This document shows, piece by piece, positions 13,365 to 54,897 of a stretch of 54,979 nt of DNA (position 1 is the first letter of the stretch; every line of letters begins with the position of its first letter). The stretch comes from Candidatus Fimimonas merdipullorum (GTDB lineage Bacteria > Bacillota > Clostridia > Christensenellales > CAG-314): contig DVOC01000065.1 in assembly GCA_018713905.1 (NCBI GenBank), positions 1 through 54,979 of the forward strand, given 5' to 3'. Both the position numbers and the translations under genes were made by a program. The notes beneath the pieces were generated by a model. That model was given only the letters and a program-made list of their open reading frames with translations, ran no database searches and was not told where the DNA came from.

Positions 13365-14441
13365 ATGAGTCAACAAGGAGGTGTTATTTTGGCGGCATAC
13401 TACATAGGCGCTAACGACGAACACGGGCAAAATCCGCCCACCGCAGGCAAACGGACGCCCGTTTTGCCATACGTAAACAGATCCTTTTACGAAAACGAAT
13501 ACAACCGCCCCGCAAAAAACTGCTTTATTCAGGCGTGTCTCAGGTGCGGGTTTGATGTTTTCGACGTCAAGCCGGAGCTGACGGATATTTCCGTGAGCAG
13601 GCGGGTGCAACGCATAAACGCCCAACGGCTGACGCTGCTGGTCACCTTCGGCTACAATGCCTTCGGCAGCGGAAGCTCCTTCAATTCGGCGGCGGGAATA
13701 CTTACCTTTTACGCGCCGCAGGGCAGACGCCCCGAGGAAAGCAGAGTGCTGGCGGAGGAAACGTACCGCAGGCTTTCGGAAAACTCCTCGCAGCCGGGCA
13801 GAGGAGTGGCGCCGCTGTACAACGTGGGGGTGCTGCAAAGCGTAAACTGCCCCTCCACCCTTGTGGAGCCGGGGTTTATGACCAATTTCGACGAGGCAAA
13901 GCTGATGTTAGACCCCGACTACCACGTGCTGACGGCGGAGGACTGCTGCCAAGGCGTGTGCGAGTGTCTGGGTGCGGACTACCTGCCCCGCCACAGAGAA
14001 AACCTGCCCCTTTTAAGGACGGGCAGCAGAGGCAATTTTGTGGAGCTTTTGCAGTTTACGCTGAACACCGTGGGCTTTTCCCTTTCGGTGGACGGCATTT
14101 TCGGATCGGCTACCCGACAGGCGGTGACGCGCTACCAGACGGACAACGGACTCGTTGCCGACGGCATAGTGGGCAAAAACACGTGGAAAACGCTCATGTT
14201 CATGCCAACCTACCCCACCCTGCGCAGGGGCAACCGCGGCAGCTACGTCAGGTACCTTCAAAGCAAGCTTACCACCAAGCTTTACCCCTGCGGAATTATA
14301 GACGGCATTTTCGGCGGCGATACAGAAAGGGCATTGAAGCAATTTCAGCAGGAGAACGCCCTCGCGGCGGACGGCATAGCGGGCAAAAACACGTGGGAGG
14401 TGCTGAGCAAAATAGGCGGAGGCAGACCGCTGACGCAATAA
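13365..14441 (+). CDS. Cell-wall amidase-like protein (Amidase_3-like N domain plus two PG_binding_1 repeats)
   Basis: The N domain resembles MurNAc-L-Ala amidase (VLQSVNCPSTLVEPGFMTNFDEA). The C terminus has two LxxGxxGxxVxxLQ...DGIFGxxTxxAVxxFQ peptidoglycan-binding repeats. In-frame TTG 13389 with AAGGAGG 7 nt upstream is the more likely start. No signal peptide. Confidence 0.7.
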   Translation: MSQQGGVILAAYYIGANDEHGQNPPTAGKRTPVLPYVNRSFYENEYNRPAKNCFIQACLRCGFDVFDVKPELTDISVSRRVQRINAQRLTLLVTFGYNAFGSGSSFNSAAGILTFYAPQGRRPEESRVLAEETYRRLSENSSQPGRGVAPLYNVGVLQSVNCPSTLVEPGFMTNFDEAKLMLDPDYHVLTAEDCCQGVCECLGADYLPRHRENLPLLRTGSRGNFVELLQFTLNTVGFSLSVDGIFGSATRQAVTRYQTDNGLVADGIVGKNTWKTLMFMPTYPTLRRGNRGSYVRYLQSKLTTKLYPCGIIDGIFGGDTERALKQFQQENALAADGIAGKNTWEVLSKIGGGRPLTQ

Positions 14442-14601
14442 AACGCATACGTATGGCGTTTTTCGGTACGCCTACGGCGTAACGCAGGCGGTAGCGCGGC
14501 AAAACGCCGTGGCGCAAGCACCCCCAAAAGCCGCGCTCGCACGGCACGCTTTGCTTGCGCCTTTTGCACAACAAAAAAGCGCCCTTAGTACACAAAGGCG
14601 C

Positions 14602-14654
14602 AAAAAAAACGAGGACAAAACCCTCGTTTTTAGAACGAGGACAAAACCCTCGTT
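14602..14654 (-). terminator. Tandemly duplicated rho-independent terminator of rpmE
   Basis: Two identical hairpins ACGAGGGUUUUGUCCUCGU (26-bp period, copies at 14608-14628 and 14634-14654). The distal one is followed by UUUUUUUU. Confidence 0.6.
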
Positions 14655-14666
14655 TTCATCATCAAG

Positions 14667-14879
14667 TTATTTCTTGTCGAAGCCGTACTTTTTGTTGAAC
14701 TTGTCTACGCGTCCGCCTGCGTCTACCAACTTTTGCTTGCCCGTAAAGTAGGGGTGACACTTATTGCAAATTTCCACCTTGATAACGTCGGTGTCTTTGG
14801 TAGTACCCGTCTGGAACGTGGCGCCACAAGCACATACAACAGTCGCCTGATGATAATTCGGATGTATACCTTGTTTCAT
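14667..14879 (-). CDS. rpmE: 50S ribosomal protein L31 (Zn-ribbon type)
   Basis: MKQGIHPNY...CACG...[13 protein letters not shown]; 70 aa. Confidence 0.95.
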
Positions 14880-19458: not shown

Positions 19459-20066
19459 CGAAAATCGTTTCTAACGCCACTCGTCCCGCACGTGAAACGA
19501 TTTTCGTGGAGAAACAAAGTATAAAAACAAACTTGAACACCACGTCATTGGTAAACACTTTTTAAGCCAACGTCATAAAGGTCAGCCACACATAGATACA
19601 CCACTCGTCCCACAAGTGAAACGATTTTCGTAGAGGAACAAAGTATAAAAACAAACTTGAACACCACTTCATTGGTAAACACTTTTTAAGCCAACGTCAT
19701 AAAGGTCAGCCGCACATAGATACACCACTCGCCTCACCGTTAAATATCTTTTAAGTCAATGACATAAACGACAGTCGTAGACGAATACGCCACTCGTCCC
19801 GCCGACAAGGCGCGTCCCACCGTTAAACACCTTTCAAACCGAAGACAGAAATGTCAGGCGCACACAAATATGCCACTCGTCCAACACGTGAAACAATTTT
19901 CGCAGAGAAACAAAGCATAAAAACAGACTTAAACGCCACTTCATTGTTAAATACCTTTTAAGCCAGCGGCATAAACGACAGTCGTAGACGAATACGCCGG
20001 TCGCCCCACCGGCGAGGCGCGCCCCACCGGCGAGGTGCGGCGAGGTGAAAGGCGCGGCGAGGTGAA
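19459..20066 (+). repeat. Array R1 of a modular intergenic repeat family (about 5 units, 124-bp period, ends in CACCGGCGAGGTG mini-repeats)
   Basis: Units begin at 19477, 19601 and 19725 (CCACTCGTCCC...GTGAAACGATTTTCG...TTTAAGCCAACGTCATAAAGGTCAGCC...). Shorter units follow. The terminal CCGGTCGCCCCACCGGCGAGG motif is iterated. A 13-bp inverted repeat (19459-19471 / 19494-19506) marks the left edge. Confidence 0.85.
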
Positions 20067-30038: not shown

Positions 30039-31226
30039 CTATTTCTCCGCGGCGGCGTACTTTTTCAGTTGCTCCGCCATATCAGTCTGTTCCCACGGGA
30101 ACTGCTCTCTGCCAAAGTGTCCGTAGCTTGCCGTCGCCTTGTATATGGGACGCTGCAAGTCGAATTTGTTTATTATTGCGCGGGGACGAAGGTCGAACTC
30201 CTTCGTTATCGCGTCGGAAAGCGCCCCGTCGCTTATTACGCCCGTGCCGAAGGTGTTTACGTCCACCGAAACGGGCTTGCTGCGCCCTATGGCATAGGAA
30301 ACCTGAATCTGTATGCGCTTTGCCAGCCCTGCCGCCACGACGTTTTTGCATATATACCTTGCCATGTACGCCGCCGAACGGTCCACCTTGGTGGGATCCT
30401 TGCCGGAAAAGGCGCCGCCGCCGTGCGCACAGTAGCCGCCGTAGGTGTCTACGATAAGCTTTCTGCCCGTAAGCCCGCTGTCCGCCGCGGGGCCGCCGAT
30501 TTCAAAACGCCCCGTGGGGTTGATGTAGTACTTTGTCTTTTCGTCCAGCAGCTCCAGCGGCACCACGTCGCGTATTACGAAACGTATCATGTCCCGCGCA
30601 ATGGTCTGACTGTCAACGTCGGGGCTGTGCTGTGCCGAAAGCACTATGGCGTCTACCCTTGCGGGCTTGTCGCCGTCGTATTCCACCGTCACCTGACACT
30701 TGCCGTCGGGACGAAGATAACCGAGTATGCCCTGCTTGCGCACCTCCGCCAGCCGTTTGCTTATTTTCTGCGCCAGCGTTATCGCCATGGGCATGTATTC
30801 CGACGTTTCGTCGCAGGCGTAGCCGAACATCATGCCTTGGTCGCCCGCGCCGTAAATGTCCAGCACGTCCCCCTCCGTGCGGTATTCCCCCGATTTGTCT
30901 ACGCCGAGGGCAATATCCGGCGATTGCTTATCCAGCGAGATGATTACGCCGCAGCTGTCGGCGTCAAAGCCGTACTTGGCGCGGGTGTAGCCAATTTCGC
31001 GCACCGTGTCACGCACTATGGAGGCGTAGTCCACTATCGCCGTGGTGGTTATTTGCCCCATCACAAACACCGTGCCCGTGCATACCACCGTTTCGCACGC
31101 CACGCGCGCGTCGGGATCCTGCGCTAAAATGGCGTCTAAAATGGCGTCGGAAATCTGGTCGCACATTTTGTCGGGGTGTCCTTCGGTAACGCTTTCCGAA
31201 GTGAAAAATCTTCTTTTGTTCGTCAT
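30039..31226 (-). CDS. metK: S-adenosylmethionine synthetase
   Basis: [32 protein letters not shown] and [19 protein letters not shown] motifs. Start set to ATG 31226 (AAAGGAGAAAA RBS). The ORF-track extension to 31394 runs through the riboswitch. Confidence 0.95.
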
Positions 31227-31269
31227 TTTTTCTCCTTTTAACCATCGAAGGCGTATCGGCCGAGGCAAT

Positions 31270-31424
31270 AAAAAACGGCTTGCCGCGTGGGACAAGACCG
31301 GTTTGCACTCCATTCCTTTCGCCGTCCCATCTTTCAGGGTGATTGCCCTGCGGAAATTAGCACCTAACGGTATTTTAGGTTGCTGTGACTTCATCGAGTC
31401 CGTCTCTCTGTCACTCTCGATAGG
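31270..31424 (-). promoter_or_regulatory. SAM-I (S-box) riboswitch with terminator expression platform, leader of metK
   Basis: Minus-strand RNA CCUAUCGAGAGUGACAGAGAGACGGACUCGAUGAAGUCACAGCAACCUAA..UUAGGUGCUAAUUUCCGCAGGG..CCCUGAAAGAUGGGA (31424-31325) has the P1-P4 layout and conserved AUGAA / GCAACC / GGUGCUAAUU / GAAAGAU blocks. A CGGUCUUGUCC-CACGC-GGCAAGCCG hairpin plus UUUUUU lies at 31301-31270. Confidence 0.8.
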
Positions 31425-31435
31425 TTATTGCCCAT

Positions 31436-31464: not shown

Positions 31465-31606
31465 CTCACCTTGCCGCACCTTGCCGGTGGGGCGAGTAGC
31501 GCACCTTGCCGGTGGGGCGACCGACGTATCTGCTTGTGGCTGACGTTTATGCTATCGGCTTGAATGCGCTTTCGTGAAACATACGGCATTTGTGGCTGAC
31601 GTTCGT
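31459..31606 (-). repeat. Array R2 of the modular repeat family (about 1.5 units, inverted orientation)
   Basis: Contains caccttgccgcaccttgccggtggggcgagtagcgcaccttgccggtggggcgaccgacgtatctgcttgtggctgacgtttatgctatcggctt, the reverse complement of the unit seen in R3 and R4. Confidence 0.8.
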
Positions 31607-42490: not shown

Positions 42491-42772
42491 GCACCTGCAA
42501 ATACATTTGAAGCCGACGACAAAAACGTCAGGCATAGGCATATACGCCAGTCGCCCCACCGGCAAGGTGCCACACCGGCAAATACATTTGAAGCCGACGA
42601 CAAAAACGTCAGGCATAGGCATATACGCCGGTCGCCCCACCGGCTAGGTGGCCTCACCGGCTAGGTGCGCCGGCAAAACAACTTAAAGCCGATAGCGTAA
42701 ACGTCGGCAACAAGCATATACGCCACTCGCCCCACCGGCAAGGTGGCCTCACCGGCTAGGTGCGGCAAGGTG
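42491..42772 (+). repeat. Array R3 of the modular repeat family (3 units, 81-95 bp) inside the feo operon
   Basis: Unit starts at 42497, 42578 and 42673 (GCAAAtACAtTTgAAGCCGAcgaCaAAAACGTCaGGCAtAgGCATATACGCCnGTCGCCCCACCGGCAAGGTG plus extra CCTCACCGGCTAGGTG mini-repeats). The first two units are nearly identical. Confidence 0.85.
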
Positions 42773-44395: not shown

Positions 44396-44910
44396 ACAAA
44401 ACAATTAAAGCCGATAGCGTAAACGCCCTGCACCTTCAAACACTTAAAGGCAAGGGCAACGATAGCCACCAGCACATATGCCCTTCAAAATACGTATAAA
44501 GCCGATAGCGTAAACGTCAGCCACCAACAAATACGCCAATCGCCCCACCGGCAAGGCGCGCCAGTCGCCCCACCGGCAAGGTGCGCTCGGCGCGTAGCCG
44601 CGGCAAAGTGAAACTCTTTTAGTGGAGAACTTAAACGTAAGCCACACACTCAAACGTCACTCGCCCCACCGGCAAGGTGCCACACCGGCAAGGTGCGCTC
44701 GGCGCGTAGCCGCGGCAAGGTGAAACTCTTTTAGTGGAGAACTCAAGCGTAAGCCACACACTCAAACGTCGCTCGCCCCACCGGCGAGGTGCCACACCGG
44801 CAAGGTGCGCCGGCAAAACAACTTAAAGCCGATAGCGTAAACGTCGGCAACAAGCATATACGCCACTCGCCTCGCCGGCAAGGCGCGCCAGTCGCCCCAC
44901 CGGCAAGGTG
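44396..44910 (+). repeat. Array R4 of the modular repeat family (5-6 units, includes a 112-bp tandem duplication)
   Basis: GTGCGCTCGGCGCGTAGCCGCGGCAAnGTGAAACTCTTTTAGTGGAGAACT...CTCGCCCCACCGGCnAGGTGCCACACCGGCAAG occurs at 44581 and again at 44693. The terminal unit 44805-44871 is identical to 42665-42731. Confidence 0.85.
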
Positions 44911-44986: not shown

Positions 44987-46285
44987 TTAGGGCTTGAGGC
45001 GGTTAGGCCCGCGGAAGAGGAAGGTGACGTCCTTTACGCTGGGCAGCTCGAACAGCTTAACCAGAGTGCGGGTGATACCCAGTCCGAAGCCGCCGTGAGT
45101 GGGCGCGCCGTAGCGGAAAAATTCCAGATACTCGCTCATGACGGCGGGATCGATGCCCTGTTCGGCAATGTTTTGTTTAAGCCGCTCGTAACGGTGCTCG
45201 CGCTGTGCGCCGCTGGTTATCTCTATGCCGCGGAACAGCAGGTCGTAGGTTTTGGTGATTTCGGGGTTATCCTCGTACTTCATAGAGTAGAAGGCTCTCG
45301 CTTTGGCGGGGAAGTCGGTGATAAACACGAAGTCGCTGCCGTACTTTTCCTTTACGTAGCGGCAGATAAGGCGCTCGCCGTCGGGATCGAGGTCGCCTTT
45401 CAGGGCACGGGGAACCTCGTGCCCCATTTGGTTTTTCAGAATATCGTACGCCTCGTACAGCGTTATGCGGGGAATTTTGCAGTCTATGTCCAGAATATCC
45501 TTGCCGAAGTACTTTTTGTACTCGTCGTTATACTGCTTTTTTATTCCCTTGACGATATACGTAAGCAGTTTTTCTTCCAGATCCATCACTTCGTGGTGAG
45601 ATTCGATAAAGGAAATTTCCACGTCTATGCCGGTAAATTCCGTGTCGTGACGGTTGGTAAAGCTGGGGTTGGCGCGGAAGTATTCGCCTATCTCGAAGGT
45701 CTTGTCGAAGCCCGCCATCATGCTCATCTGCTTGTACAGCTGAGGGCTTTGGGTGAGGTAGGCTTTTTGTCCGAAGTAGTCTTTAAGCTCGAACACCTCG
45801 CTGCCCCCTTCGCTGGAAAGCGCCGTGATTTTGGGGGTGTGGATCTCTATGAAGCCGTTGTCGTTGAAAAATTCCACGGCGTACTTTTCAAACGCCGTCT
45901 GAATTTTGAAGAGGAAGGTCTTTTTGTCGTCGCGCAGGTCTATCCAGCGATAGTCCATTCGGAGATCCTGACCGCTGTCCGCCTGAATGGGCAGCACGTC
46001 GGCTATACTCATTATTTCCAGCGCAGTGGGATAAATTTCCTTGCCGCCGTTGCGCACGTAGGTGGAGAACACGCACTGTCCCTCTACCGTGACGAAGCTG
46101 TGCGGAGTAAGTTCTTTTGCCTGTTCGTACACGTCGGGGCACTTGTCCTTTTCCACCGTCACCTGCACGCTGCCGGTAACGTCGCGTATTACCAAAAACA
46201 TTATTTTTTTGTCGCGAATGGTTTCCACCATTCCCTTTATTTTGCATTGACCTTCGGTCAGATCCTTTATATACGTTCTGTTCAT
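44987..46285 (-). CDS. aspS: Aspartate--tRNA ligase, archaeal/eukaryal-type (short class IIb, 432 aa)
   Basis: OB-fold N domain; class II motif 2 FRANPSFTNRHDTEFTGIDVEISF; motif 3 GGFGLGITRTLV; C-terminal ...FRGPNRLKP resembles the archaeal-type AspRS ending. Lacks the about 130-aa bacterial insertion domain. Confidence 0.8.
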   Translation of the reverse strand: MNRTYIKDLTEGQCKIKGMVETIRDKKIMFLVIRDVTGSVQVTVEKDKCPDVYEQAKELTPHSFVTVEGQCVFSTYVRNGGKEIYPTALEIMSIADVLPIQADSGQDLRMDYRWIDLRDDKKTFLFKIQTAFEKYAVEFFNDNGFIEIHTPKITALSSEGGSEVFELKDYFGQKAYLTQSPQLYKQMSMMAGFDKTFEIGEYFRANPSFTNRHDTEFTGIDVEISFIESHHEVMDLEEKLLTYIVKGIKKQYNDEYKKYFGKDILDIDCKIPRITLYEAYDILKNQMGHEVPRALKGDLDPDGERLICRYVKEKYGSDFVFITDFPAKARAFYSMKYEDNPEITKTYDLLFRGIEITSGAQREHRYERLKQNIAEQGIDPAVMSEYLEFFRYGAPTHGGFGLGITRTLVKLFELPSVKDVTFLFRGPNRLKP

Positions 46286-46300
46286 TATTTATTCTCCTTG

Positions 46301-47680
46301 TCAGCGAAGTTCGTTTTTGGCGCGGGGGAAGGCGATGGTATCGCGTATGTTGCCCATACCGGTGACGTACATCAGAATACGCTCCAATCCCAGCCCGAAG
46401 CCGCTGTGAGGCACGCTGCCGTACCTGCGCAGATCCAGATAGTTTTTGTAGTCGTCCAGCTTCATATGGCGGTCGGTAATGGCTTTAAGCAGCTTGTCGT
46501 AGTCCGCCTCGCGCTCGCTGCACCCTATTATTTCGCCCACGCCCGGCACAAGCAGGTCTGTGGCGGCGACGGTGCGCCCGTCGACATTTTGCTTCATATA
46601 GAAGGACTTTATATCCTTGGGGTAGTTTACCACAAACACGGGACGCTTGTACACCACGTCGGTGAGGTAGCGCTCGTGCTCCGTTTGCAGATCCTTGCCC
46701 CAATCGACGGGATACTGGAAGCTCTGACCGCTATTTTTTAGTATCTCCACCGCCTGTGCGTAGTCCACCACGGCGAAGTCGTTGTCCACCACGTTACGCA
46801 GCTTTTCGCGCAGTCCCTGTTCGTAAAATTTTTCCAAAAAGGCAAGTTCCTCGCCGCAGCCGTCCAGCACCGACGCAATTATGTGCTTGATAAAATCGGT
46901 GGCTATTTCCATGATGTCGGGCAACTCGGCAAAAGCCACTTCCGGCTCTATCTGCCAGAACTCCGCCGCGTGCCGCGTGGTGTTGCTGTTTTCCGCGCGG
47001 AAGGTGGGGCCGAAGGTATAAATTTTGCCGAAAGCCGTAGCCATAACTTCCCCTTCCAGCTGACCGGACACGGTGAGTCCGGCGCGCTGACCGAAAAAGT
47101 CCTTGGCGTCGTATTCCTGCTGCGTCTTGACGGAGGGATCGAACCCTACGGTAGTCACCTGAAAGATTTCCCCCGCGCCCTCGCAGTCGCTGCCCGTAAT
47201 TATGGGCGTGTGCACGTACAGAAAGCCTCTTTGCTGAAAAAATTCGTGTATGGCGGCGGAAAGCTTGCTGCGTATGCGGAAAACGGCGTTGAAGGTGTTG
47301 GTGCGCACCCGAAGATGTGGCAGCGTGCGCAAAAAGTCCAGCGACGTTTTGGTTTTCTGAATGGGATAGTCCTGCGGACACGCCCCCAAAAGAGTGACTT
47401 GCGAAGCGTTTACCTCCACCGCCTGATTGGCGTTGAAAGATTTTACCGCAACGCCCTTTACCGCTACCGACGCGCCGGTAGACAGCGCCGAAAGGTCGGC
47501 AGAGCAGGAATTTTTGTCCACCACTATTTGCAGGTGCTGCAAGCTCGTGCCGTCGTTCAACGCCATAAACGCCATATTTTTGCCGTCGCGGAAGGTGCGT
47601 ATCCAGCCGCACACCGTGACGTCTTTGTCAAAGTAGCTTTCGGGGCTGCCCAGAATAAGACTTATATCCGTGTGTTTCAT
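46301..47680 (-). CDS. asnS: Asparagine--tRNA ligase
   Basis: FRAENSNTTRHAAEFWQIEPEVAF (AsnRS motif 2) and GSVPHSGFGLGLERILMYVTG (motif 3); 459 aa. Sits 15 nt upstream of aspS. Confidence 0.9.
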   Translation of the reverse strand: MKHTDISLILGSPESYFDKDVTVCGWIRTFRDGKNMAFMALNDGTSLQHLQIVVDKNSCSADLSALSTGASVAVKGVAVKSFNANQAVEVNASQVTLLGACPQDYPIQKTKTSLDFLRTLPHLRVRTNTFNAVFRIRSKLSAAIHEFFQQRGFLYVHTPIITGSDCEGAGEIFQVTTVGFDPSVKTQQEYDAKDFFGQRAGLTVSGQLEGEVMATAFGKIYTFGPTFRAENSNTTRHAAEFWQIEPEVAFAELPDIMEIATDFIKHIIASVLDGCGEELAFLEKFYEQGLREKLRNVVDNDFAVVDYAQAVEILKNSGQSFQYPVDWGKDLQTEHERYLTDVVYKRPVFVVNYPKDIKSFYMKQNVDGRTVAATDLLVPGVGEIIGCSEREADYDKLLKAITDRHMKLDDYKNYLDLRRYGSVPHSGFGLGLERILMYVTGMGNIRDTIAFPRAKNELR

Positions 47681-47838: not shown

Positions 47839-50733
47839 TCAGTCAACAAAAGTTACCGTTACCGTGGCGCTTTGGTTGGTGATACTTTCCACCTTTACGT
47901 CGAAATTTACGGCTTTGCCGTCGTTGCGGCAGTAGTTGAACACCGCAGACAGACTGCCGCCCGCCTGCCACAAGTCGCTTGCCGCGGCGTAGCCGTTGGT
48001 GCTGCGGAACTTGGTTTCGCCGTCCGCCTCCACCAGCTTGAGCAGCGGCTCGGAGGTGAGAGAGTTGTTGCAGTCGGTAAAGGAGCCGTATTCGTCGGAA
48101 TAGGGGTTATTTGCCCACCCCGTCACGTGGTAGATACGCACGCCCTTTTGCGCCCCGCCGTAAAGCAGGCTGTCCGGCTGCATTGCGTGCATCTGGTTGA
48201 GCCCGGTCGCCGTGTAGAAGTCTATCAGCAGGTACTCGGAAAAATAGGAGTTGTCGAAGTTGAGCATTATAAGCAGGCAGTCGCCGCTTTCGGCAAAGGG
48301 GGACAGCGTAAAGGTGCCGTTTTGCGTGACTATCTGCGGAGTCGTCCACCCCAGCATTATTTTGGAATAGGCGCTGTGGTCGCCCACCGTGTAGTCCATC
48401 ATATCGGCGCCGCCCACACCCTCGTCGCTGCCGCTGTCGGGATAGTAGTCGTAGTAGTCGTCCAGCCCCAAAAGGTGCCCCGTTTCGTGAATATAGGTAG
48501 AGGCGTTTATTTGCAGCCCGTCTATTTTGCCGTTGTATTCAAAACCGTCGGCTCTGTCGGCGTCCTCGTCCATAAAGTCAAAACCGGCAAACAGATAGTA
48601 GTAGGCGTCCAGCCCGTCGTACTGTTCGGCGCCCATATACCACGTTACGTACGCCCAATAGAAGGAGTCGGCGGAATAGTCCACGTCGGCGGAATAGATG
48701 AGGTACACCGCGTCTATGCAGCCGTCGCCGTTGGAGTCGTACTGCGAAAGGTCTATTCTGCCTTCCAGCCACGCCAGCACTTCCCTGAACAAGGCGTCGC
48801 TGCCGTACTCGGTGTATTGGTAGTCGCCGTCGGAAACCGTTTCGTTGTAGTTGGCGTAGTAGGAGGAGTTGTGCTGCGCCGTGTAGACGGAATTTACCCC
48901 CGCAAGGTTGTAGCCGGCAATATCGAAGCTGACGTTCAGCTTGCCGTAGGAAGATGCGGCGTAGTAGGTGTTGACGCTTTGCCAGCCCGTGTCGTCGCCG
49001 CTGCCGTTGAAGGCAAGGTTGAGCTTGTTCAGATCCGCCGAGGTTATCGCCGCCACGTCGGAAAACTGCACCGGCACCACAAGGCAGTCGTAGGTGCCCT
49101 GCGAGGGCAGTCCCACCACGTTTTCGTACCCCATAAGCTTGTCCTGCAAGCGAGAATCGTCAAAGGTCTGCTCATCGTAGCTTTGCGACGGCATGACGTT
49201 GCCTTCGCCACCGCCGCCAAGCTTGCCGTTTATCGACACGGCGGAGATATACATGGATTTTTCCGTGTTGGTGGGGGTAAGAACTATCGTCACAAGCCCG
49301 CTCGCCTGCCCGTCAGGCACAAAGTTTAGGGTGGTGTTTTCGGAAAAATGCGTCTGCTGCGCCACCATCACTTCCGTCTGCCCGTCGCATTTGAGAGCGG
49401 CGCTGCCCACAAACACCTGAACCGTCATTCCCGTAGAGCAGTTGGTGGCTACAATTACGCTTACCGTGGTCACTTCCGTGACGGAAGCCTCGGAAACTAT
49501 GGTTACCGCGCCGTTTCTTTGCAGAAACTGCACGCCGCGGTTGCCGTCGAAGCCGTTGGACACGGCGTCCGTCGTGTAGCCCAGCTGCCCCGCCGCCACC
49601 GTAAGGCGGTTGTCGGTAAACACCGATTTCATATCCGTCGCCGACTCTACGTCCTCGCCGCCCGTGCCGCCGCTGCCGTCGTCGGGCAAAGTGAACGAGG
49701 CGTTGCCGTAGTCGGAAAATTCCGCCACGAACAGGTAGCTGCCGCCGTACTCTGCGGAGGTGTCGCTCTGCTCCGCCACTATCTTGGCTATTTTGCCCTG
49801 CTCCACGTACAGCGCAAGGGACGTCCACGTGCTGTCTTCGTACTCGCCGAAAATCAGGTTGCCCGCCGCATTTGCGTCCGCCGCAGCGTAGCCGTCGCCG
49901 TCGGCAACGAATTTAAGACTGCCCAACCCCTGAACGTTTACGTAATCCATAGAGTAGTAATAGTCCATAAAGTAGGCGTCCGTCTGGTCTATTACGGTAT
50001 AACTGCCGCCGCCGTTGTCGTAGTAGTAGAAGTAACCGTTCAGGTCCGCCCTGTATTCCAAGTAGTCGGTGTACCACGCGCCTTCGTATTCGTACGTCAT
50101 AGCCACGTCGTCGCCGTACATTTTCAAGGTGTCGGTGTAGCTTACTTCCCCTTCGTAATACATGGTGTACTGCACCTTGAAGTTGTACAGGCTTGCGTCT
50201 TCGTACTGCGCAAACACGTCGGAAAGGTCGGCGTCCTCGCCAATGGCGGGGTTGCTCCACTTGGCGTACACGTCCACGTTGCCCGAAAGGCTTTGCGGCA
50301 CGCTCCACGGAATTGTGCATGCGCTGTCGGCATACCAGCCGCCGAACACCATGCTGCCGTTGGTGGGCTGCGCCGGCAATGCAAAGTTGTCGTCGAAACG
50401 CACCACTGTGCTTTCGTCGCCGTTTTGCGGATGGAAAATTACGTAATACGCCGTCTGCGGCTCGCCCCACTTGGCGTACACCACCACGTTTTGGCTTAGG
50501 CTTTCAGGAACGCTCCACGGCGTGGTGCCTTGCTTGTCGGCAAACCACCCCAAAAATTGCTTGTCGCCGTTGGTGGGCTGCGCCGGCAACGTAAAGTTGT
50601 CGTCAAATGCCACCGTCTGCGGCTGCGTGCCGTTTTGCGCGTCGAACGTCACCGTAAAGGTGAGCGGCTGACACGCCGTAAGCACCAGACACAGCAACAG
50701 CACCGTTGCCGTTACAAAAGACAGTTTTTTCAT
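47839..50733 (-). CDS. Secreted lipoprotein: two Listeria-Bacteroides (Flg_new) repeats, an unknown middle region and an M6/immune-inhibitor-A-like metalloprotease domain
   Basis: Signal peptide plus lipobox (MKKLSFVTATVLLLCLVLTAC). Two repeats of TVxFDxQNG...FxLPAQPTNGxxxFxGWFAD...PW. HETGHLLGLDDYYDY zinc motif in the C-terminal half. Start set to ATG 50733 (AGGAG 5 nt upstream). Confidence 0.8.
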   Translation of the reverse strand: MKKLSFVTATVLLLCLVLTACQPLTFTVTFDAQNGTQPQTVAFDDNFTLPAQPTNGDKQFLGWFADKQGTTPWSVPESLSQNVVVYAKWGEPQTAYYVIFHPQNGDESTVVRFDDNFALPAQPTNGSMVFGGWYADSACTIPWSVPQSLSGNVDVYAKWSNPAIGEDADLSDVFAQYEDASLYNFKVQYTMYYEGEVSYTDTLKMYGDDVAMTYEYEGAWYTDYLEYRADLNGYFYYYDNGGGSYTVIDQTDAYFMDYYYSMDYVNVQGLGSLKFVADGDGYAAADANAAGNLIFGEYEDSTWTSLALYVEQGKIAKIVAEQSDTSAEYGGSYLFVAEFSDYGNASFTLPDDGSGGTGGEDVESATDMKSVFTDNRLTVAAGQLGYTTDAVSNGFDGNRGVQFLQRNGAVTIVSEASVTEVTTVSVIVATNCSTGMTVQVFVGSAALKCDGQTEVMVAQQTHFSENTTLNFVPDGQASGLVTIVLTPTNTEKSMYISAVSINGKLGGGGEGNVMPSQSYDEQTFDDSRLQDKLMGYENVVGLPSQGTYDCLVVPVQFSDVAAITSADLNKLNLAFNGSGDDTGWQSVNTYYAASSYGKLNVSFDIAGYNLAGVNSVYTAQHNSSYYANYNETVSDGDYQYTEYGSDALFREVLAWLEGRIDLSQYDSNGDGCIDAVYLIYSADVDYSADSFYWAYVTWYMGAEQYDGLDAYYYLFAGFDFMDEDADRADGFEYNGKIDGLQINASTYIHETGHLLGLDDYYDYYPDSGSDEGVGGADMMDYTVGDHSAYSKIMLGWTTPQIVTQNGTFTLSPFAESGDCLLIMLNFDNSYFSEYLLIDFYTATGLNQMHAMQPDSLLYGGAQKGVRIYHVTGWANNPYSDEYGSFTDCNNSLTSEPLLKLVEADGETKFRSTNGYAAASDLWQAGGSLSAVFNYCRNDGKAVNFDVKVESITNQSATVTVTFVD

Positions 50734-50775: not shown

Positions 50776-50804
50776 ATTTTACTATCTCGCACGCCACTTG
50801 TCAA
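50776..50804 (-). promoter_or_regulatory. Promoter of the protease gene (TTGACA-17-TAAAAT)
   Basis: Minus strand: TTGACA (50804-50799), 17-nt spacer, TAAAAT (50781-50776). The -35 is the terminal hexamer of array R5, identical to the metK case. Confidence 0.55.
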
Positions 50805-51079
50805 CTCACCTTGCCGCACCTTGCCGCACCTCGCCGGTGAGGCGAGTAGCGTATTTGCTTGTGCCTGACGTTTACGCTATCGGCTTCAAGTTGTTTTTTT
50901 TGTGAGACGCCTTGCCGCACCTTGCCGGTGGGGCACCTCGCCGGTGGGGCGACCGGCGTATTTGCTTATGCCTGACGTTTACGCTATCGGCTTTAAGTTG
51001 CAGCATTCGCCCTGCAAGCACCGTCGGATTGTTGCCCCGCAAGCGCTTTTGACACAAAAACTCGCCACCGTATGCAAAA
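50799..51079 (-). repeat. Array R5 of the modular repeat family (2 units) plus an about 80-bp tail shared only with R6
   Basis: Two copies of gcctgacgtttacgctatcggcttnaagtt with caccttgcc/cacctcgcc mini-repeats. The tail 50997-51079 (ttgcagcattcgccctgcaagcaccgtcggattgttgccccgcaagcgcttttg...) recurs at 52998-53080. Confidence 0.85.
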
Positions 51080-51097
51080 ACTCCGCACAAGGCGGAG
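51074..51097 (-). terminator. Candidate terminator of the low-GC three-gene operon
   Basis: Minus-strand CTCCGC-CTTGT-GCGGAG hairpin followed by TTTTTGCAT, 44 nt after the stop at 51141. Confidence 0.45.
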
Positions 51098-51140
51098 CTT
51101 TTGCGTTTAACGTTGCGGCGTTCTGTTCGTCGAGAATATG

Positions 51141-51626
51141 CTATTTTGTCGCTTTAACGTTTATGATAAGCGTCAATTCTCTGTCGGGAAATTCATTTTC
51201 TCCCCAGACAGAAATTTTACGGATATATTGTCCCGGCGTATCTATTTCACTATACGGATCGGGCACATTGCCGTATCTCTCTATATATCTGTATGCTGTA
51301 TATGTGACGCGTATCGGTTCACCTGCCCCTCCTGAACCGGCAGGTGTAAACCAACTGTTATATCTCGGATCGCCGGGTACGCGAATTAATCCCTCTCCAA
51401 ACCACACGTATTCCGTCAAGTAATCCACGGTTATTTCTATCTTGTCCGTTTTGTCGTCGAAAACTATTTCCACTGGAAACGCGTACTCTATTTTAGACTC
51501 CCGTTCACCATAATAGAATGTCGGCTTAAACCAAACTGCCGGTTCGTATTTGTCGTAACATGCGGCAAGGGAGAAAGCCGCAACGAGCAACAATACCGAC
51601 ACTAAAACTACCGCTAACTTTTTCAT
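51141..51626 (-). CDS. Lipoprotein of unknown function (161 aa), low-GC island gene 3
   Basis: Signal peptide plus lipobox MKKLAVVLVSVLLLVAAFSLAAC. GAGGAGGG RBS. AT-rich codon usage unlike the flanking genes. I recognise no family. Confidence 0.65.
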   Translation of the reverse strand: MKKLAVVLVSVLLLVAAFSLAACYDKYEPAVWFKPTFYYGERESKIEYAFPVEIVFDDKTDKIEITVDYLTEYVWFGEGLIRVPGDPRYNSWFTPAGSGGAGEPIRVTYTAYRYIERYGNVPDPYSEIDTPGQYIRKISVWGENEFPDRELTLIINVKATK

Positions 51627-51636
51627 GATGCCCTCC

Positions 51637-51978
51637 TCAGTTCAGATAGGCGGAGTATCTTTCCGCCAACGCAATCAGCGTTTCTGTGTCTATCATTCCT
51701 TTGCCCACGGCAATTTTAAGATAACTGCCGTTAAACGCTTCGAATACCTGCTGCGACACGGGTACAAGCTGCGAAAATTCCTCGTAAGTGTACAATCCGT
51801 ATTCCGCTATATCTTCTGCCATTTTTGCTTGATCTATCTTCATGGTGTCTTTGTCCACTTCAAAGATATTAAACATTCCGTCTATTCCGCCCGGCACGGA
51901 CAACATTCCGTTGACGTAGTAGCACAAATGGCTGTACGTGATCGGGATGTGAGCCATGGTTACAATTTTTTTCGACAT
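51637..51978 (-). CDS. Small cytoplasmic protein (113 aa) of unknown function, low-GC island gene 2
   Basis: ATG 51978 with GAGGAG 6 nt upstream (the ORF track starts at GTG 52044). No signal peptide. The sequence HLCYYVNGMLS...YGLYTYEEF...FNGSYLKIAVGKG recalls the region after the Hint domain of large clostridial surface proteins (from memory, unverified). Confidence 0.5.
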   Translation of the reverse strand: MSKKIVTMAHIPITYSHLCYYVNGMLSVPGGIDGMFNIFEVDKDTMKIDQAKMAEDIAEYGLYTYEEFSQLVPVSQQVFEAFNGSYLKIAVGKGMIDTETLIALAERYSAYLN

Positions 51979-52043
51979 GATTATCTCCTCATCGGTTTTA
52001 GGTATATTTATGTTGTATATGCACGTCTGACTGATTTGTCGCA

Positions 52044-52559
52044 CTACTCTTCTATATCAATGTCGGCAAGTTTGATTTCGAGATGGATTTTGCGTGAAGG
52101 TACACTTTTTACTCCGGCATCAAACTCTATATCAAACACGTATATTCCTTTTCCTGACACAAGCTCAATTGCGCTGTCGGGATAAATATAATCGGGTATT
52201 CCTCCTGCAGAAGCTAACCAACTCGGATCACTGTCCTTTTCATGCTCGAGATAGTGTGAAGTCATGTGGATCGACAAGTAATCCAAGTAGTCTTCGGCGA
52301 ATTTCCATTCTCCGTCTTTGTCTTTTTGTGGAACGCAAAATTGATAGAAGCTGAGTTCTGCCGCAGGTGCGTCTATCGTCAGATAAACTCTGTTTACCCC
52401 CGGATAAAAGGTGACTATCTGCTTGTTTCCCTCCCCATACGTAATAAGCATGGAGAAGGAGGTGTGCCGCTTTTCCTCTTCGCATGCGCCAAAGGCAAGG
52501 CACGTTATCAGCAGCAGTACTGCCAATGCTACCACAGCCGACTTTTTGATTTTGGTCAT
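52044..52559 (-). CDS. Lipoprotein of unknown function (171 aa), low-GC island gene 1
   Basis: MTKIKKSAVVALAVLLLITCLAFGAC signal peptide plus lipobox. Start set to ATG 52559 (AAAGGGAGGAAG RBS). AT-rich. Confidence 0.65.
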   Translation of the reverse strand: MTKIKKSAVVALAVLLLITCLAFGACEEEKRHTSFSMLITYGEGNKQIVTFYPGVNRVYLTIDAPAAELSFYQFCVPQKDKDGEWKFAEDYLDYLSIHMTSHYLEHEKDSDPSWLASAGGIPDYIYPDSAIELVSGKGIYVFDIEFDAGVKSVPSRKIHLEIKLADIDIEE

Positions 52560-52648
52560 AGAACTTCCTCCCTTTATTTTTACGGACAGCGTCCGCAAGA
52601 ATCAAAAAATACAAATTTTGCACGAAATAAAGCCCTCGTTGCAAATAT

Positions 52649-52677
52649 ATTATATAACTTATAAATGATTTTTGCAA
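52649..52677 (-). promoter_or_regulatory. Promoter of the low-GC operon (TTGCAA-17-TATAAT)
   Basis: Minus strand: TTGCAA (52677-52672), 17-nt spacer, TATAAT (52654-52649). Lies 38 bp from the end of array R6. Confidence 0.5.
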
Positions 52678-52715
52678 TAGTAATTATCAATAATGAACCA
52701 AGTTTTTTATTGAAA

Positions 52716-53080
52716 CACCTCGCCGCACCTCGCCGGCGAGGCGACTGACGTTTGAGTTTATTACTTGCGTTCACGTCCTCTACTAAAAGAGTTTTGCCGG
52801 TGGGGCGACCGGCGTATTTGCTTGTGCCTGACGTTTACGCTATCGGCTTCAAGTTATTTTTTTGTGAGACGCCTTGCCGGTGGGGCGAGTGGCGTCTATG
52901 CCTATGACTGACGTTGGGTAATCCACTAAAAACACCTTCCGGTGGGGAGAGTAGCGTATTTGCTGCCTGTGCCTGACGTTTACGCTATCGGCTTCAAGTT
53001 GCAGCGTTCGCCCTGCAAGCACCGTCGGATTGTTGCCCCGCAAGCGCTTTTGTCGCAAAAACTCGCCGCCGTTTGCAAAA
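52716..53080 (-). repeat. Array R6 of the modular repeat family (about 3 units) plus the tail shared with R5
   Basis: cacctcgccgcacctcgccggcgagg mini-repeats, the rc of the GTGAAACTCTTTTAGTGGAG module (ctctactaaaagagtttt), two gcctgacgtttacgctatcggcttcaagtt cores, then the tail 52998-53080. Confidence 0.85.
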
Positions 53081-53176: not shown

Positions 53177-54064
53177 ATGTTTGCCATAAAAACGGAAGGT
53201 CTTTGCAAGGCATACGGCGGCGCCGTTGCCGTGAAAGACGTCAACATTGAAATAGCCGAAGGCAGCATAACGGGGCTTGTAGGCAAAAACGGGGCGGGGA
53301 AAACCACCCTGATAAAGCTGCTGGCGGGGCTTACCAACCCCACTGCCGGCAGAGTGTGCGTTTTGCCCAACGGCAGAACTGCCGGTTCGGTGGCGGCGCT
53401 GGTGGAAAGTCCCGCGCTGTACGAAACGCTGACTGCGCGGCAAAACCTTGAGGCGCAATGCCTGCTTTTGGGAATTGCCCCCGACAGAGAGTATCTGCGC
53501 AAAACGCTGGAGCTTGTGGGGTTGCAGGAAGATGCCAAAAAGGTGAAATATTTTTCGTTGGGAATGAAACAGCGGCTGGCTTTGGCGGTGGCTTTGGTGG
53601 GAAAACCGTCGTTGCTGCTTTTGGACGAGCCCACAAACGGGCTGGACCCGCAGGGAATACACGACGTGCGGCAGTTGCTGTTGCAGATAAACGCCGCCAC
53701 TGGGGCGACGATAGTAATTTCCAGCCACCTGCTTACGGAGCTTTCCAAGCTGGCACAAACCTTTTTGTTTATGGACAAGGGCAGCATTGTGGCAACCGCC
53801 ACGGCGGAGCAGCTGCAAAGCCTGAACCTGCGCCGCACGAGAATTGTCTTTGCCGACGCGTCGGAAGCGCAAAAGGCTTTGCCCCTTTTGAGCGAATTTG
53901 GCGAAACAAGCGTTATGGGCGCCATTGCCGAGGTGCAGACGCAAGCTCCCCTGACGCAGATACTGCTTGTTTTGGCACAGCAGGGGGCAAAGGTCACAGG
54001 CGTTTCCGAAAGTACAGACGGACTGGAAGAATACTTTTTGCGGCTGGTGGGAGGTAACAAATGA
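53177..54064 (+). CDS. ABC transporter ATP-binding protein (ABC-2 exporter type)
   Basis: Walker A GKNGAGKTTL, signature-like FSLGMKQRLALA, Walker B LLLLDEPTNGLD, H-loop ISSHLL. Start set to ATG 53177. The stop overlaps the permease ATG (ATGA at 54061-54064). Confidence 0.9.
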   Translation: MFAIKTEGLCKAYGGAVAVKDVNIEIAEGSITGLVGKNGAGKTTLIKLLAGLTNPTAGRVCVLPNGRTAGSVAALVESPALYETLTARQNLEAQCLLLGIAPDREYLRKTLELVGLQEDAKKVKYFSLGMKQRLALAVALVGKPSLLLLDEPTNGLDPQGIHDVRQLLLQINAATGATIVISSHLLTELSKLAQTFLFMDKGSIVATATAEQLQSLNLRRTRIVFADASEAQKALPLLSEFGETSVMGAIAEVQTQAPLTQILLVLAQQGAKVTGVSESTDGLEEYFLRLVGGNK

Positions 54065-54897
54065 TAAATTTGCTTCGCGTACAGTTTTTTCGCATAAAGA
54101 GGGCGGCGTATTTTTGGATAATGCTGGCTTTGTGCGCCGCTTTGCCGCTGCTTTCGGTGGGGGTGCTTTACCTTTCGGCTTTGGCGCTTTCGGTCACGGG
54201 CGGCGTGCCCGCAGATAGCGTTATGTCGCAGCTTAAAAGCAGCGATCTGACCTCGGCGCAGCTGTCGGGCATGGCGTATTTGCCCTCTAACTCGACGATT
54301 ATGGCGGCAATTTGCGTTGCCGTGCTGCTTTGCGCGGAATTTCGTCAGCACACCGTGCGCAACGCCGTTACGGCGGGGGTGACTGCCCGTGAAACGGGTT
54401 TTGCCTACCTTTTGACGTCGCTGTTTGTGGGGGCGGTGTATTTTTTGACGGAGTTTGTCTTTACGTTGACCTTTTTCGGCATATTTTTCGGCTTTGGCAA
54501 CACCGCCGCCGGCACGGCGACTACGCAGGTGCTGATAAGCTTTGCGGGAGGCATGGCGTGCACGGCGTTTTCCGTCTGCCTGACCTGCGCTTTCGTGCTG
54601 GGCACGCGAAGAACCTCCGTTGCGGTGACGCTGCCGCTGGTGATACTCGCCTTGGGCATAAGCATGATTTCGTCGGCATGCCACTACGCCGCTACGGCGA
54701 TATTGAAAAACGCCTCGTCGCAGCTACTGCAATGCCTGCCCTTGGTGAACGTGGCGGAAGCCACCGCCGCTGTCACGCAAGGAGCATTACCCACCCACCT
54801 GAACGTGGCGATGACGGCTTTGTACTACCTTTTGGGCGGGGCGGCGATAATTTTGCCGATGACGCTATCCACCTTTCCCAAAAACAACGTCAACTGA
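54061..54897 (+). CDS. ABC-2 family transporter permease
   Basis: 278 aa with about 6 hydrophobic helices. The N terminus MINLLRVQFFRIKRAAYFWIML is typical of ABC-2/lantibiotic-immunity-type permeases. Translationally coupled to the ATPase. Confidence 0.75.
   Translation: MINLLRVQFFRIKRAAYFWIMLALCAALPLLSVGVLYLSALALSVTGGVPADSVMSQLKSSDLTSAQLSGMAYLPSNSTIMAAICVAVLLCAEFRQHTVRNAVTAGVTARETGFAYLLTSLFVGAVYFLTEFVFTLTFFGIFFGFGNTAAGTATTQVLISFAGGMACTAFSVCLTCAFVLGTRRTSVAVTLPLVILALGISMISSACHYAATAILKNASSQLLQCLPLVNVAEATAAVTQGALPTHLNVAMTALYYLLGGAAIILPMTLSTFPKNNVN

Follow-up and report, generated by a model that had tools for sequence, protein, structure and literature searches.

The question raised by this locus is how a small group of genes that encodes no recombinase came to lie between two copies of the same intergenic sequence. 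The window analysed here is the whole of contig DVOC01000065.1 of Candidatus Fimimonas merdipullorum, 54,979 nt in length, and the element under study is a low-GC three-gene island near its right end, located between a lipoprotein protease gene and the genes of an ATP-binding cassette (ABC) transporter and bracketed by arrays of a short repeat, each of which ends in an 80-nt tail. The original prediction was that of a cassette captured or duplicated by recombination between the repeat arrays, by a mechanism of mobilisation that, if it existed, would not be a known one. We consider it probable, with moderate confidence, that the island is a horizontally acquired, strain-variable accessory operon that entered by one duplicative insertion and has since behaved as a passive presence/absence allele moved by homologous recombination. 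We infer the direction of gain, the two kinds of joint and the part of homologous recombination in loss and spread. A novel mobilisation mechanism is not called for, as one event at a single locus is involved and homologous recombination suffices for loss and spread. The biology is conventional, an insertion–deletion polymorphism governed by general recombination: the repeat family is apparently undescribed, the kind of event known. The parts of the locus on which the argument rests are as follows.

50807 to 51000, plus strand: array A, made of 10-nt CACCTTGCCG repeats followed by two A units (50828-50900 and 50935-51000).
50963 to 51079, plus strand: left copy of the direct repeat, composed of the end of the last A unit and the 80-nt tail T1 (51000-51079).
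51080 to 52698, minus strand: island-specific DNA, 1619 nt, 43% GC, missing in empty-site strains (compared with L001 to L004).
52699 to 53000, plus strand: array B, the 3' remnant of an A unit from 52699 on, then units C (52727-52776), A (52793-52865), B (52871-52915) and A (52935-53001).
52964 to 53080, plus strand: right copy of the direct repeat, composed of the end of the last A unit and tail T2 (53001-53080).

A repeat search of the window identified the segments 50963-51079 and 52964-53080 as direct repeats of 117 nt with 93% identity, 2001 nt apart, a likeness that chance does not explain. Within the 110-nt segments first noticed (50970-51079 and 52971-53080), for which about six mismatches had been announced, we count exactly six, and the longest exact block is 46 nt. 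The tail was said to be unique within the window, and it occurs there in two places only: a 42-nt pattern allowing up to three mismatches gives two matches versus none expected, and an nhmmer profile built from 12 tail copies gives two matches with E of about 1e-27, the next best having E=0.01. Exact or near-exact 30-nt cores are present four times in the window, at 50863, 50970, 52826 and 52971. The DNA between the repeats differs clearly from its surroundings. Its GC content (51080-52700) is 43.4%, versus 57.2% in the protease gene and 56.3% in the ABC genes; it forms the window's sole run of four consecutive 500-nt bins below 47% GC, and the GC content at third codon positions (GC3) is 0.44-0.57 in its three genes versus 0.65-0.77 in 11 other genes. 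The low GC content first noticed in sampled 60-nt lines (35-40%) is confirmed, and GC3 deviates as well.

Strain contigs were found as encoders of proteins exactly identical to those of the window, with an identical ABC ATPase as the anchor of the site; the flanks of these conspecific assemblies diverge from the window by 0.8-1.8%. In about 21 of the 23 contigs with the identical ABC ATPase the site is empty (L001 to L004 and about 17 of the same kind), the protease gene directly adjoining the ABC genes. The intergenic region of such sites measures 336-578 nt and contains the protease promoter, one to four repeat units, one tail, TTCCCGTCACC and the start of the ABC genes. The empty site carrying a single copy of the last core and tail, which the original prediction had proposed to look for in relatives, therefore exists in strains of the same species, and in the window T2 runs on into the ABC-proximal sequence TTCCCGTCACC as it does in empty sites. 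Occupied sites are present in the window, L005, L007, L008, L039, L041 and L042, and four of these contigs (window, L005, L007 and L008) span the entire occupied intergenic region. The order of units (A, B and C) and tails (T) at the loci compared is given below.

L001, empty: A, A-T.
L002, empty: A-T.
L003, empty: A*, A, A-T.
L004, empty: A, A, B, A-T.
Window, occupied: A, A-T1, island, C, A, B, A-T2.
L005, occupied: A, A-T1, island, C, A-T2.
L007, occupied: B, A*, A-T1, island, C, A, A-T2.
L008, occupied: A*, A-T1, island, C, A-T2.

The spacing of exactly 2001 nt, presented as a feature of the locus, is incidental, because the number of array units differs between strains and changes the distance: from tail to tail it is 2001 nt in the window, and about 2055, 1962 and 1855 nt in the three other strains. 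The joints, on the other hand, do not vary. The left joint has TGCAAAA, the end of the tail, directly before ACTCCGC (ACTCCGCACAAGG, or, over a longer stretch, ACTCCGCACAAGGCGGAG), and at the right joint ...AATGAAC is followed by CAAGTTTTTTATTGAAACACC; both are identical in the window, L005, L007 and L008, and the short contigs that carry only island DNA agree with them. Since every occupied contig that spans the joints has the same two, the insertion happened once. The two joints are of different kinds. The right joint lies inside an A unit, the sequence from CAAGTT (52699) on aligning with the 3' end and linker of A units, and unit C, which comes next, corresponds by homology to unit B of the arrays at empty sites; the joint looks homology-assisted. 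The left joint shows no homology beyond an A/T run, with 4-5 nt of A/T microhomology, and the U-tract of the minus-strand terminator, TTTTTG, consists of base 51080 and the terminal AAAA of T1, so that by its sequence it looks like an illegitimate joint of the microhomology type. The idea of a cassette captured or duplicated between arrays holds in part: the insert is discrete and foreign in composition, and array homology is involved at its right joint. As first stated, the island carries no integrase, transposase or terminal inverted repeat: no inverted repeats were found at its ends (51080 and 52698), and no transposase, integrase or recombinase was found in it with Pfam and NCBIfam or in the Pfam lists of its neighbours within about 10 kb. 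Nothing in the phage and plasmid collections searched matches the island DNA, viral contigs contain no relative of its middle protein, and no copy of the island was found at another locus.

We propose the following course of events. The target would have been the divergent-promoter intergenic region between the gene of the M6-type protease and the ABC operon, composed of a variable array and the unique 80-nt tail. Foreign DNA with units of the repeat family at one end would have entered it through a homology-assisted joint in the array and an illegitimate joint at the tail end, and array and tail would since be present twice, once to each side of the island, in a direct repeat at least 117 nt long. 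Candidates for the origin of the second tail are a single event bridging sister chromosomes, a later unequal crossover between arrays and Campbell-type integration of a circle. RecA-type recombination between the direct repeats could then delete the island precisely, a single tail being left, and recombination in the conserved flanks or in the arrays could carry the island, or segments of it, between strains. Encoding no recombinase of its own, the island would be a passive allele throughout. Owing to the duplication, each of the two divergent promoters keeps a complete upstream region of array and tail, which may be the reason why this insertion survived.

The strain data are in keeping with such exchange. 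The tree of the flanks is star-like, with occupied and empty strains interleaved and the occupied ones not grouped, and islands of type a diverge by 0.4-1.1%, versus 1.2-1.7% in their flanks, which fits exchange within a recombining population, as far as can be judged from the sequences compared. The GGATTGTTGCCCC variant is present in both tails of the window and of L008 and missing from four empty sites, which suggests that conversion may have occurred between the two copies. Cassette variants, another expectation of the original prediction, exist as allelic haplotypes of the island, at least three of which were found within the species. They are mosaic: the signal peptides, the intergenic spacers and both ends are conserved, while the mature parts of the lipoproteins and the front of gene 2 differ by 30-50%, a pattern typical of exchanged or diversifying surface-protein alleles. 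These data come from L005 (7910-9528), L039 (2297-3915), L010 to L016 and L040, and from proteins P0015, P0030 and P0041; P0030 differs from P0015 by a 25-amino-acid deletion between two AEYG repeats. In L040 (40% GC) genes 1 and 2 occupy 916 nt, and what comes after them differs, both in the terminator and in the downstream DNA. P0036, which looked like a homologue of gene 1 with 63% identity, was discarded, as it proved to be this very locus in a long-read contig, called with a frameshift. The locus thus provides a population-level example of a small accessory operon gained and lost without mobility genes, with empty and occupied sites both in hand, in an uncultured bacterium of the human and chicken gut.

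Several points weigh against this explanation. The island could be old, and deletion between the repeats could have given the empty sites. Island haplotypes that have identical joints diverge by 16.6%, which shows that the island is no recent arrival, or that it still recombines with an outside reservoir. Simple recombination would not duplicate the tail in a single event, and at least one step of the scheme is conjecture; a recent Campbell-type integration of identical sequence is excluded, because T1 and T2 of one strain differ at 6-14 of 97 positions. A donor locus with the whole operon was not found; L040 carries only genes 1 and 2.

The first two of these points lead to the alternative that survives best, in which the occupied state is ancestral. 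The array–tail copies would then be duplicated upstream regions of two neighbouring units, the empty sites would be deletions, and the low GC content would reflect the history or function of the genes themselves and not a recent transfer. Direct repeats of this length delete readily, deeply diverged haplotypes with the same joints imply long residence, and the occupied strains form no clade by flank sequence, all of which speaks in its favour. A long residence should nevertheless have lessened the difference in composition, and the GC3 of the operon is still foreign; the lipoproteins have no relatives outside the locus, and gene 2 is a truncated remnant whose gene type is known in complete form only from other organisms, mostly of lower GC content. 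In addition, the left joint, with the end of the tail used as terminator U-tract, resembles an insertion scar, and about 90% of the sampled contigs are empty, with diverse tail haplotypes. We regard an ancestral island as unlikely, though worth keeping in mind.

A second alternative takes the tail, or the tail with the last unit, as an attachment (att) site, the island being an integrase-less, cis-mobilisable element that would depend for integration and excision on a site-specific recombinase supplied in trans, by another part of the genome or by a helper element, and the repeats being attL and attR. The direct repeats, which are about 117 nt long and include an exact block of 46 nt, and the single copy at the empty site have the classical geometry of such sites, and an excised circle or a tandem copy would yield the 2001-nt cycle of L009 (Logan ERR10608863, 2031 nt), in which the first 30 nt equal the last 30 nt (k-1 for k=31). 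This contig does not discriminate, as the cycle begins exactly at the boundary of homology, as would a loop in a de Bruijn graph. L009 was set aside as evidence of an excised circle, a graph loop arising from the chromosomal direct repeats being equally expected; in L013 (1889 nt) a 28-nt self-overlap lies inside an array unit. The remaining properties of the locus do not fit an att site: there is no integrase or recombinase in the island or in about 10 kb on each side, occupation is confined to a single locus, the repeat adjoins neither a tRNA gene nor the 3' end of a gene, the tails are highly polymorphic with neither an invariant core nor detectable structure, and the left boundary of the repeat is not sharp but fades into the generic array. 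The same facts separate the island from the cis-mobilisable elements (CIMEs) of streptococcal families of integrative and conjugative elements (ICEs), which occupy the att site used by a known ICE or integrase, in most cases the 3' end of a gene, and have a defined repeat core. The island is like a CIME in its small cargo, its bounding direct repeats, the single repeat of the empty site and the lack of recombination genes inside, but it has no integrase or ICE in about 10 kb, it lies between divergent promoters and its repeat merges into a generic array. Site-specific mobilisation in trans seems to us quite improbable.

Other results concern the nature of the tail and its surroundings. The tail folds no better than shuffled sequences (z=+0.7 to +1.2), and a metagenome scan for it gave no match; in the region as a whole no tRNA was found, and no Rfam family matched, at the gathering threshold or at E of 1 or less. 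The notion that the tail is an end-piece of the arrays was dropped, as a sensitive nhmmer search found no tail-like sequence beside the other arrays of the window. Within the tail (53001-53080 and 51000-51079) the motif CC(T/C)GCAAGC is directly repeated and CTTTTG-NCN-CAAAAA forms a small palindrome, and nhmmer gives a weak match of the tail with its reverse complement (E=0.012). A role as the binding site of a regulator between the divergent promoters is conceivable.

Arrays A and B are not a local feature. They are part of an interspersed family that extends over the window, with 21 units in six intergenic clusters.

19554 to 20025, minus strand: repeat cluster 1.
31478 to 31564, plus strand: repeat cluster 2.
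42505 to 42744, minus strand: repeat cluster 3.
44401 to 44884, minus strand: repeat cluster 4.
50828 to 51000, plus strand: repeat cluster 5.
52727 to 53001, plus strand: repeat cluster 6.

A unit is composed, in this order, of one to three 10-nt CACCTTGCCG repeats, a GC-rich hairpin (for example GCCGGT-GGGGCG-ACCGGC), GTATTTGC, the core GACGTTTACGCTATCGGCTT and a T-rich linker; the long type A measures about 80-107 nt, the short types B and C about 64 nt. Units fold modestly better than shuffled sequences (z=-2.4 to -3.7), but a reading as RNA genes was dropped, since there is no Rfam match, the consensus fold is weak (-7.8 kcal/mol) and there is little covariation; the family seems to behave as a DNA-level repeat and not as an RNA gene. 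The number of units is strain-variable at all three array loci that could be compared (feoA-feoA, tetR-asnS and protease-ABC), and it differs even between strains with an identical protease protein (L041 and L042). The other clusters adjoin ordinary genes (htpG/hsp20, an mprF-like gene, metK with its SAM riboswitch, feoA/feoB, tetR, asnS): the protease-ABC array flanks lipoprotein genes and the other five clusters flank housekeeping genes, six clusters being too few for statistics. In the species-representative genome collection the repeat core GACGTTTAYGCTRTCGGCTT has five single, chance-like matches, the one checked (L027) lying inside a kinase coding sequence, and the repeats of this species are apparently not represented there. 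A scan of Joint Genome Institute (JGI) metagenomes for the hairpin motif gave three matches, the sole true relative being L034 (47% GC), with units at 12546-12756 and 14411-14667. The family, which belongs to the genus CAG-1435 (Candidatus Fimimonas), is apparently undescribed. In architecture, and not in sequence, it can be compared with the BOX elements of pneumococci (A-Bn-C) and with mycobacterial interspersed repetitive units, which are modular dispersed intergenic repeats with a strain-variable number of units; the units described here are likewise modular, intergenic, present at several loci and variable in number. To our knowledge, these families are not usually tied to the insertion of a gene island bounded by duplicated array ends. 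The family could serve as a strain-typing marker, and it breaks short-read assemblies at its loci.

The functionally nearest precedents are two features of Neisseria, the minimal mobile elements (MMEs) and the intergenic mosaic (dRS3/RS) arrays, called NIME arrays below; the island is a member of neither. As they are summarized in the passage of PMC1797815 that refers to Saunders and Snyder (2002), MMEs are small regions that hold one to three genes, are flanked by conserved genes, vary in content between strains and have no transposase, integrase or terminal repeat, and are thought to be exchanged by DNA uptake and homologous recombination in the flanks. The island resembles them in that the gene content of its site differs between strains (empty, and at least three haplotypes) within the same conserved flanks, and in its lack of transposase, integrase and terminal inverted repeats. 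In contrast with MMEs, which are defined without target duplication, it has at least 117 nt of array and tail duplicated; its site holds one kind of cassette with allelic variants, or none, and no unrelated alternatives were seen; and transformation is documented in Neisseria, whereas the host here is an uncultured member of the Christensenellales. NIME arrays occupy syntenic intergenic positions with a number of units that varies between strains (Parkhill 2000; Bentley 2007, PMC1797815). They are preferentially associated with genes for surface or exported proteins and with raised divergence of flanking genes, and they had not been observed outside Neisseria as of 2007 (PMC1797815). They were proposed to promote recombination with acquired DNA, including the insertion of array-flanked genes into chromosomal arrays (Bentley 2007, PMC1797815). 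The arrays of the window share with them modular non-coding units in syntenic positions and a strain-variable number and length of units, and one joint of the island lies inside a unit. They differ in sequence, the dRS3 motif ATTCCC-N8-GGGAAT having no match in the window with up to one mismatch; in build, with units of about 64-107 nt made of 10-nt CACCTTGCCG sub-repeats and a GC-rich hairpin versus RS elements bounded by 20-bp inverted repeats; and in setting, since the host is a gut anaerobe of Gram-positive type and most of its arrays flank housekeeping genes.

This likeness invites the thought that the Christensenellales arrays are a counterpart of NIME arrays, recombination hot spots, possibly with a recombinase of their own, that capture surface-protein cassettes duplicatively, the island being the first case seen. 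Should the arrays prove to favour exchange of genes for surface proteins, they would parallel the neisserial arrays, once thought genus-specific; we give the idea little credence. A narrower version, in which the arrays are a dedicated cassette-capture system, with a recombinase that recognises units and inserts array-flanked genes, fares somewhat worse and is in our view very doubtful. The family is dense (21 units and six clusters in 55 kb), modular and hypervariable, one joint lies within a unit, the island brings a unit of its own, and surface lipoprotein genes are located on both sides of array A. Yet only one of the six arrays of the window has an insert, and the others adjoin housekeeping genes; the left joint lies outside the units, a recombinase was not seen, the hairpins are weak and poorly covarying, a second strain-variable segment nearby is not associated with arrays, and all this concerns a single case. 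The island resembles integron cassettes in having genes beside a structured repeat, in arrays and without their own recombinase, but there is no IntI or attI nearby, the three genes have a predicted promoter and terminator of their own where such a cassette is usually one ORF with no promoter, and the repeats are direct copies of local intergenic DNA with weak folding, unlike the imperfect palindromes of attC. Transposons, insertion sequences and miniature inverted-repeat transposable elements differ from the island by the inverted repeats and transposase that it lacks, and by a short target-site duplication as opposed to one of at least 117 nt. That duplication or placement of the island results from metagenome mis-assembly has a negligible chance, because, even though short-read assemblies break here, many contigs hold only island DNA (1.3-2.0 kb) and L006 starts inside the tail, both joints recur in assemblies that were made independently, with different assemblers and from different samples (L007, L008, L041 and L042), the arrangement is also found in two long-read-style contigs (L005 and L039), and empty sites are reproduced in many assemblies.

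As first described, the sequence of the island contains three genes, with a strong promoter-like site and a predicted terminator of its own; the genes are minus-strand open reading frames (ORFs) of 171, 113 and 161 amino acids.

52677 to 52649, minus strand: promoter-like site of the island operon, TTGCAA-17-TATAAT, in AT-rich DNA (prediction).
52044 to 52559, minus strand: gene 1, a 171-amino-acid predicted lipoprotein (signal peptide followed by Cys), near-orphan.
51637 to 51978, minus strand: gene 2, a 113-amino-acid relic with the truncated C-terminus of a Hint domain.
51141 to 51626, minus strand: gene 3, a 161-amino-acid predicted lipoprotein (signal peptide followed by Cys), orphan.
51081 to 51097, minus strand: predicted terminator hairpin of the island operon (sequence scan).

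None of the three proteins has a Pfam or NCBIfam match. An exhaustive HMMER search with gene 1 among 1.8 billion representatives gave five matches, of which only two are true relatives, the rest being weak and unrelated repeat proteins, and gene 3 has two protein clusters only among 5.8 billion proteins, with 99% and 71% identity; both lipoproteins thus appear to be essentially without relatives outside this locus. Gene 2 is the island's only conserved gene, with 34 relatives among the 5.8 billion proteins; its product is identical to an NCBI protein of a metagenome-assembled genome of Candidatus Fimimonas merdipullorum. The alignment of its family shows that it joins seven codons from a signal-peptide gene to the final strands of a Hint (intein-like) domain and a conserved C-terminal module of about 75 amino acids and five helices. 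Its first residues are MSKKIVT, the stretch that begins a signal peptide in the chimeric alleles P0015 and P0030, and the Hint remnant reads ...SPVTYSHLCYYVNGMLS.PGG just before the conserved end of about 75 residues. The remainder of the Hint domain is found in relatives of about 195 amino acids and in ORFs upstream of relatives: in L021 the preceding 1114-amino-acid Flg_new surface protein ends CVAEGSLITLADG...ISEHAFWD. The relatives of gene 2 come from other organisms, where they occupy unrelated loci; most of their contigs have 38-47% GC, and the repeat family is missing from them; the composition of the island fits an origin in a lower-GC relative because of this distribution.

With the AlphaFold model of a 195-amino-acid homologue, P0019 (model confidence, pLDDT, 71), the approximately 38 top Foldseek matches in the PDB are all inteins or hedgehog Hint domains, with a probability of about 1.0 and E from 1e-3 to 0.2, while sequence matches are weak: Pfam Hint PF01079 gives E=0.03 and 14.4 bits on the reconstructed L021 C-terminus, versus a cut-off of 29.7 bits, and PDB 1at0 gives E=0.3. 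According to these models the long homologues of gene 2 have the Hint fold, of which the 113-amino-acid protein of the window would keep just the last strands. In the model of that protein, residues 1-22 have a pLDDT below 50 and the helical bundle 80-93; Foldseek found no PDB match for the five-helix bundle. The family of Hint plus five-helix module (P0003 to P0029) ends large Flg_new surface proteins, as in L017 (5735-8363) and L021 (4660-8441), and is repeatedly called as two overlapping ORFs (761 plus 120 amino acids, 1114 plus 146 amino acids). In L021 the ORF break lies inside the Hint domain. Such a division may reflect a frameshift, a pseudogene or a gene that is truly split. A toxin–immunity reading, with an orphan toxin C-terminus and an immunity lipoprotein, was rejected, since the module is conserved (55-71% identity) and not polymorphic and since its homologues elsewhere have no conserved downstream partner.

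The island is flanked by the following features.

47839 to 50733, minus strand: protease gene (left flank), a 964-amino-acid lipoprotein with Flg_new repeats and an M6-type metalloprotease domain (HETGH).
50776 to 50804, minus strand: promoter-like site of the protease gene, TTGACA-17-TAAAAT, 11 of 12 consensus positions, on the gene side of the array (prediction).
53177 to 54064, plus strand: ABC transporter ATPase (right flank), assigned with Pfam.
54061 to 54897, plus strand: ABC-2 permease (right flank), assigned with Pfam.

In the protease, the Pfam Flg_new (Listeria-Bacteroides) repeats match with E=8.5e-25, and the NCBIfam M6 domain with E=1.4e-26 but below its curated cut-off. Downstream of the ABC permease, beyond the right end of the window, there is a second strain-variable segment (L001, 12184-12848, versus L003, 12180-12761), which contains either a 193-amino-acid S component of an energy-coupling factor (ECF) transporter or a 123-amino-acid ORF and an 84-amino-acid DUF3592 protein; no units of the repeat family flank it. 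On the other side, two paralogous class II aminoacyl-tRNA synthetases of the Asp/Asn/Lys type are encoded in tandem (44987-46285, minus strand, 432 amino acids; 46301-47680, minus strand, 459 amino acids). Upstream of metK (ORF 30039-31394) lies an S-adenosylmethionine (SAM, S-box) riboswitch (31324-31426, minus strand, 76.7 bits), and a cluster of the repeat family is directly upstream of it. Candidatus Fimimonas corresponds to CAG-1435 of GTDB, in family CAG-314 of the order Christensenellales (PMC8035907). The NCBI taxonomy files it under Myxococcaceae, a lineage that looks misplaced, as the GerA, GerAC and spore-permease genes of the neighbourhood and the S-box fit Clostridia. The window contains, in addition, two direct-repeat pairs spaced by 210 nt: one (50288-50404 and 50498-50614) corresponds to two N-terminal Flg_new repeats of the protease gene, and the other (14091-14186 and 14301-14396) is inside an ORF.

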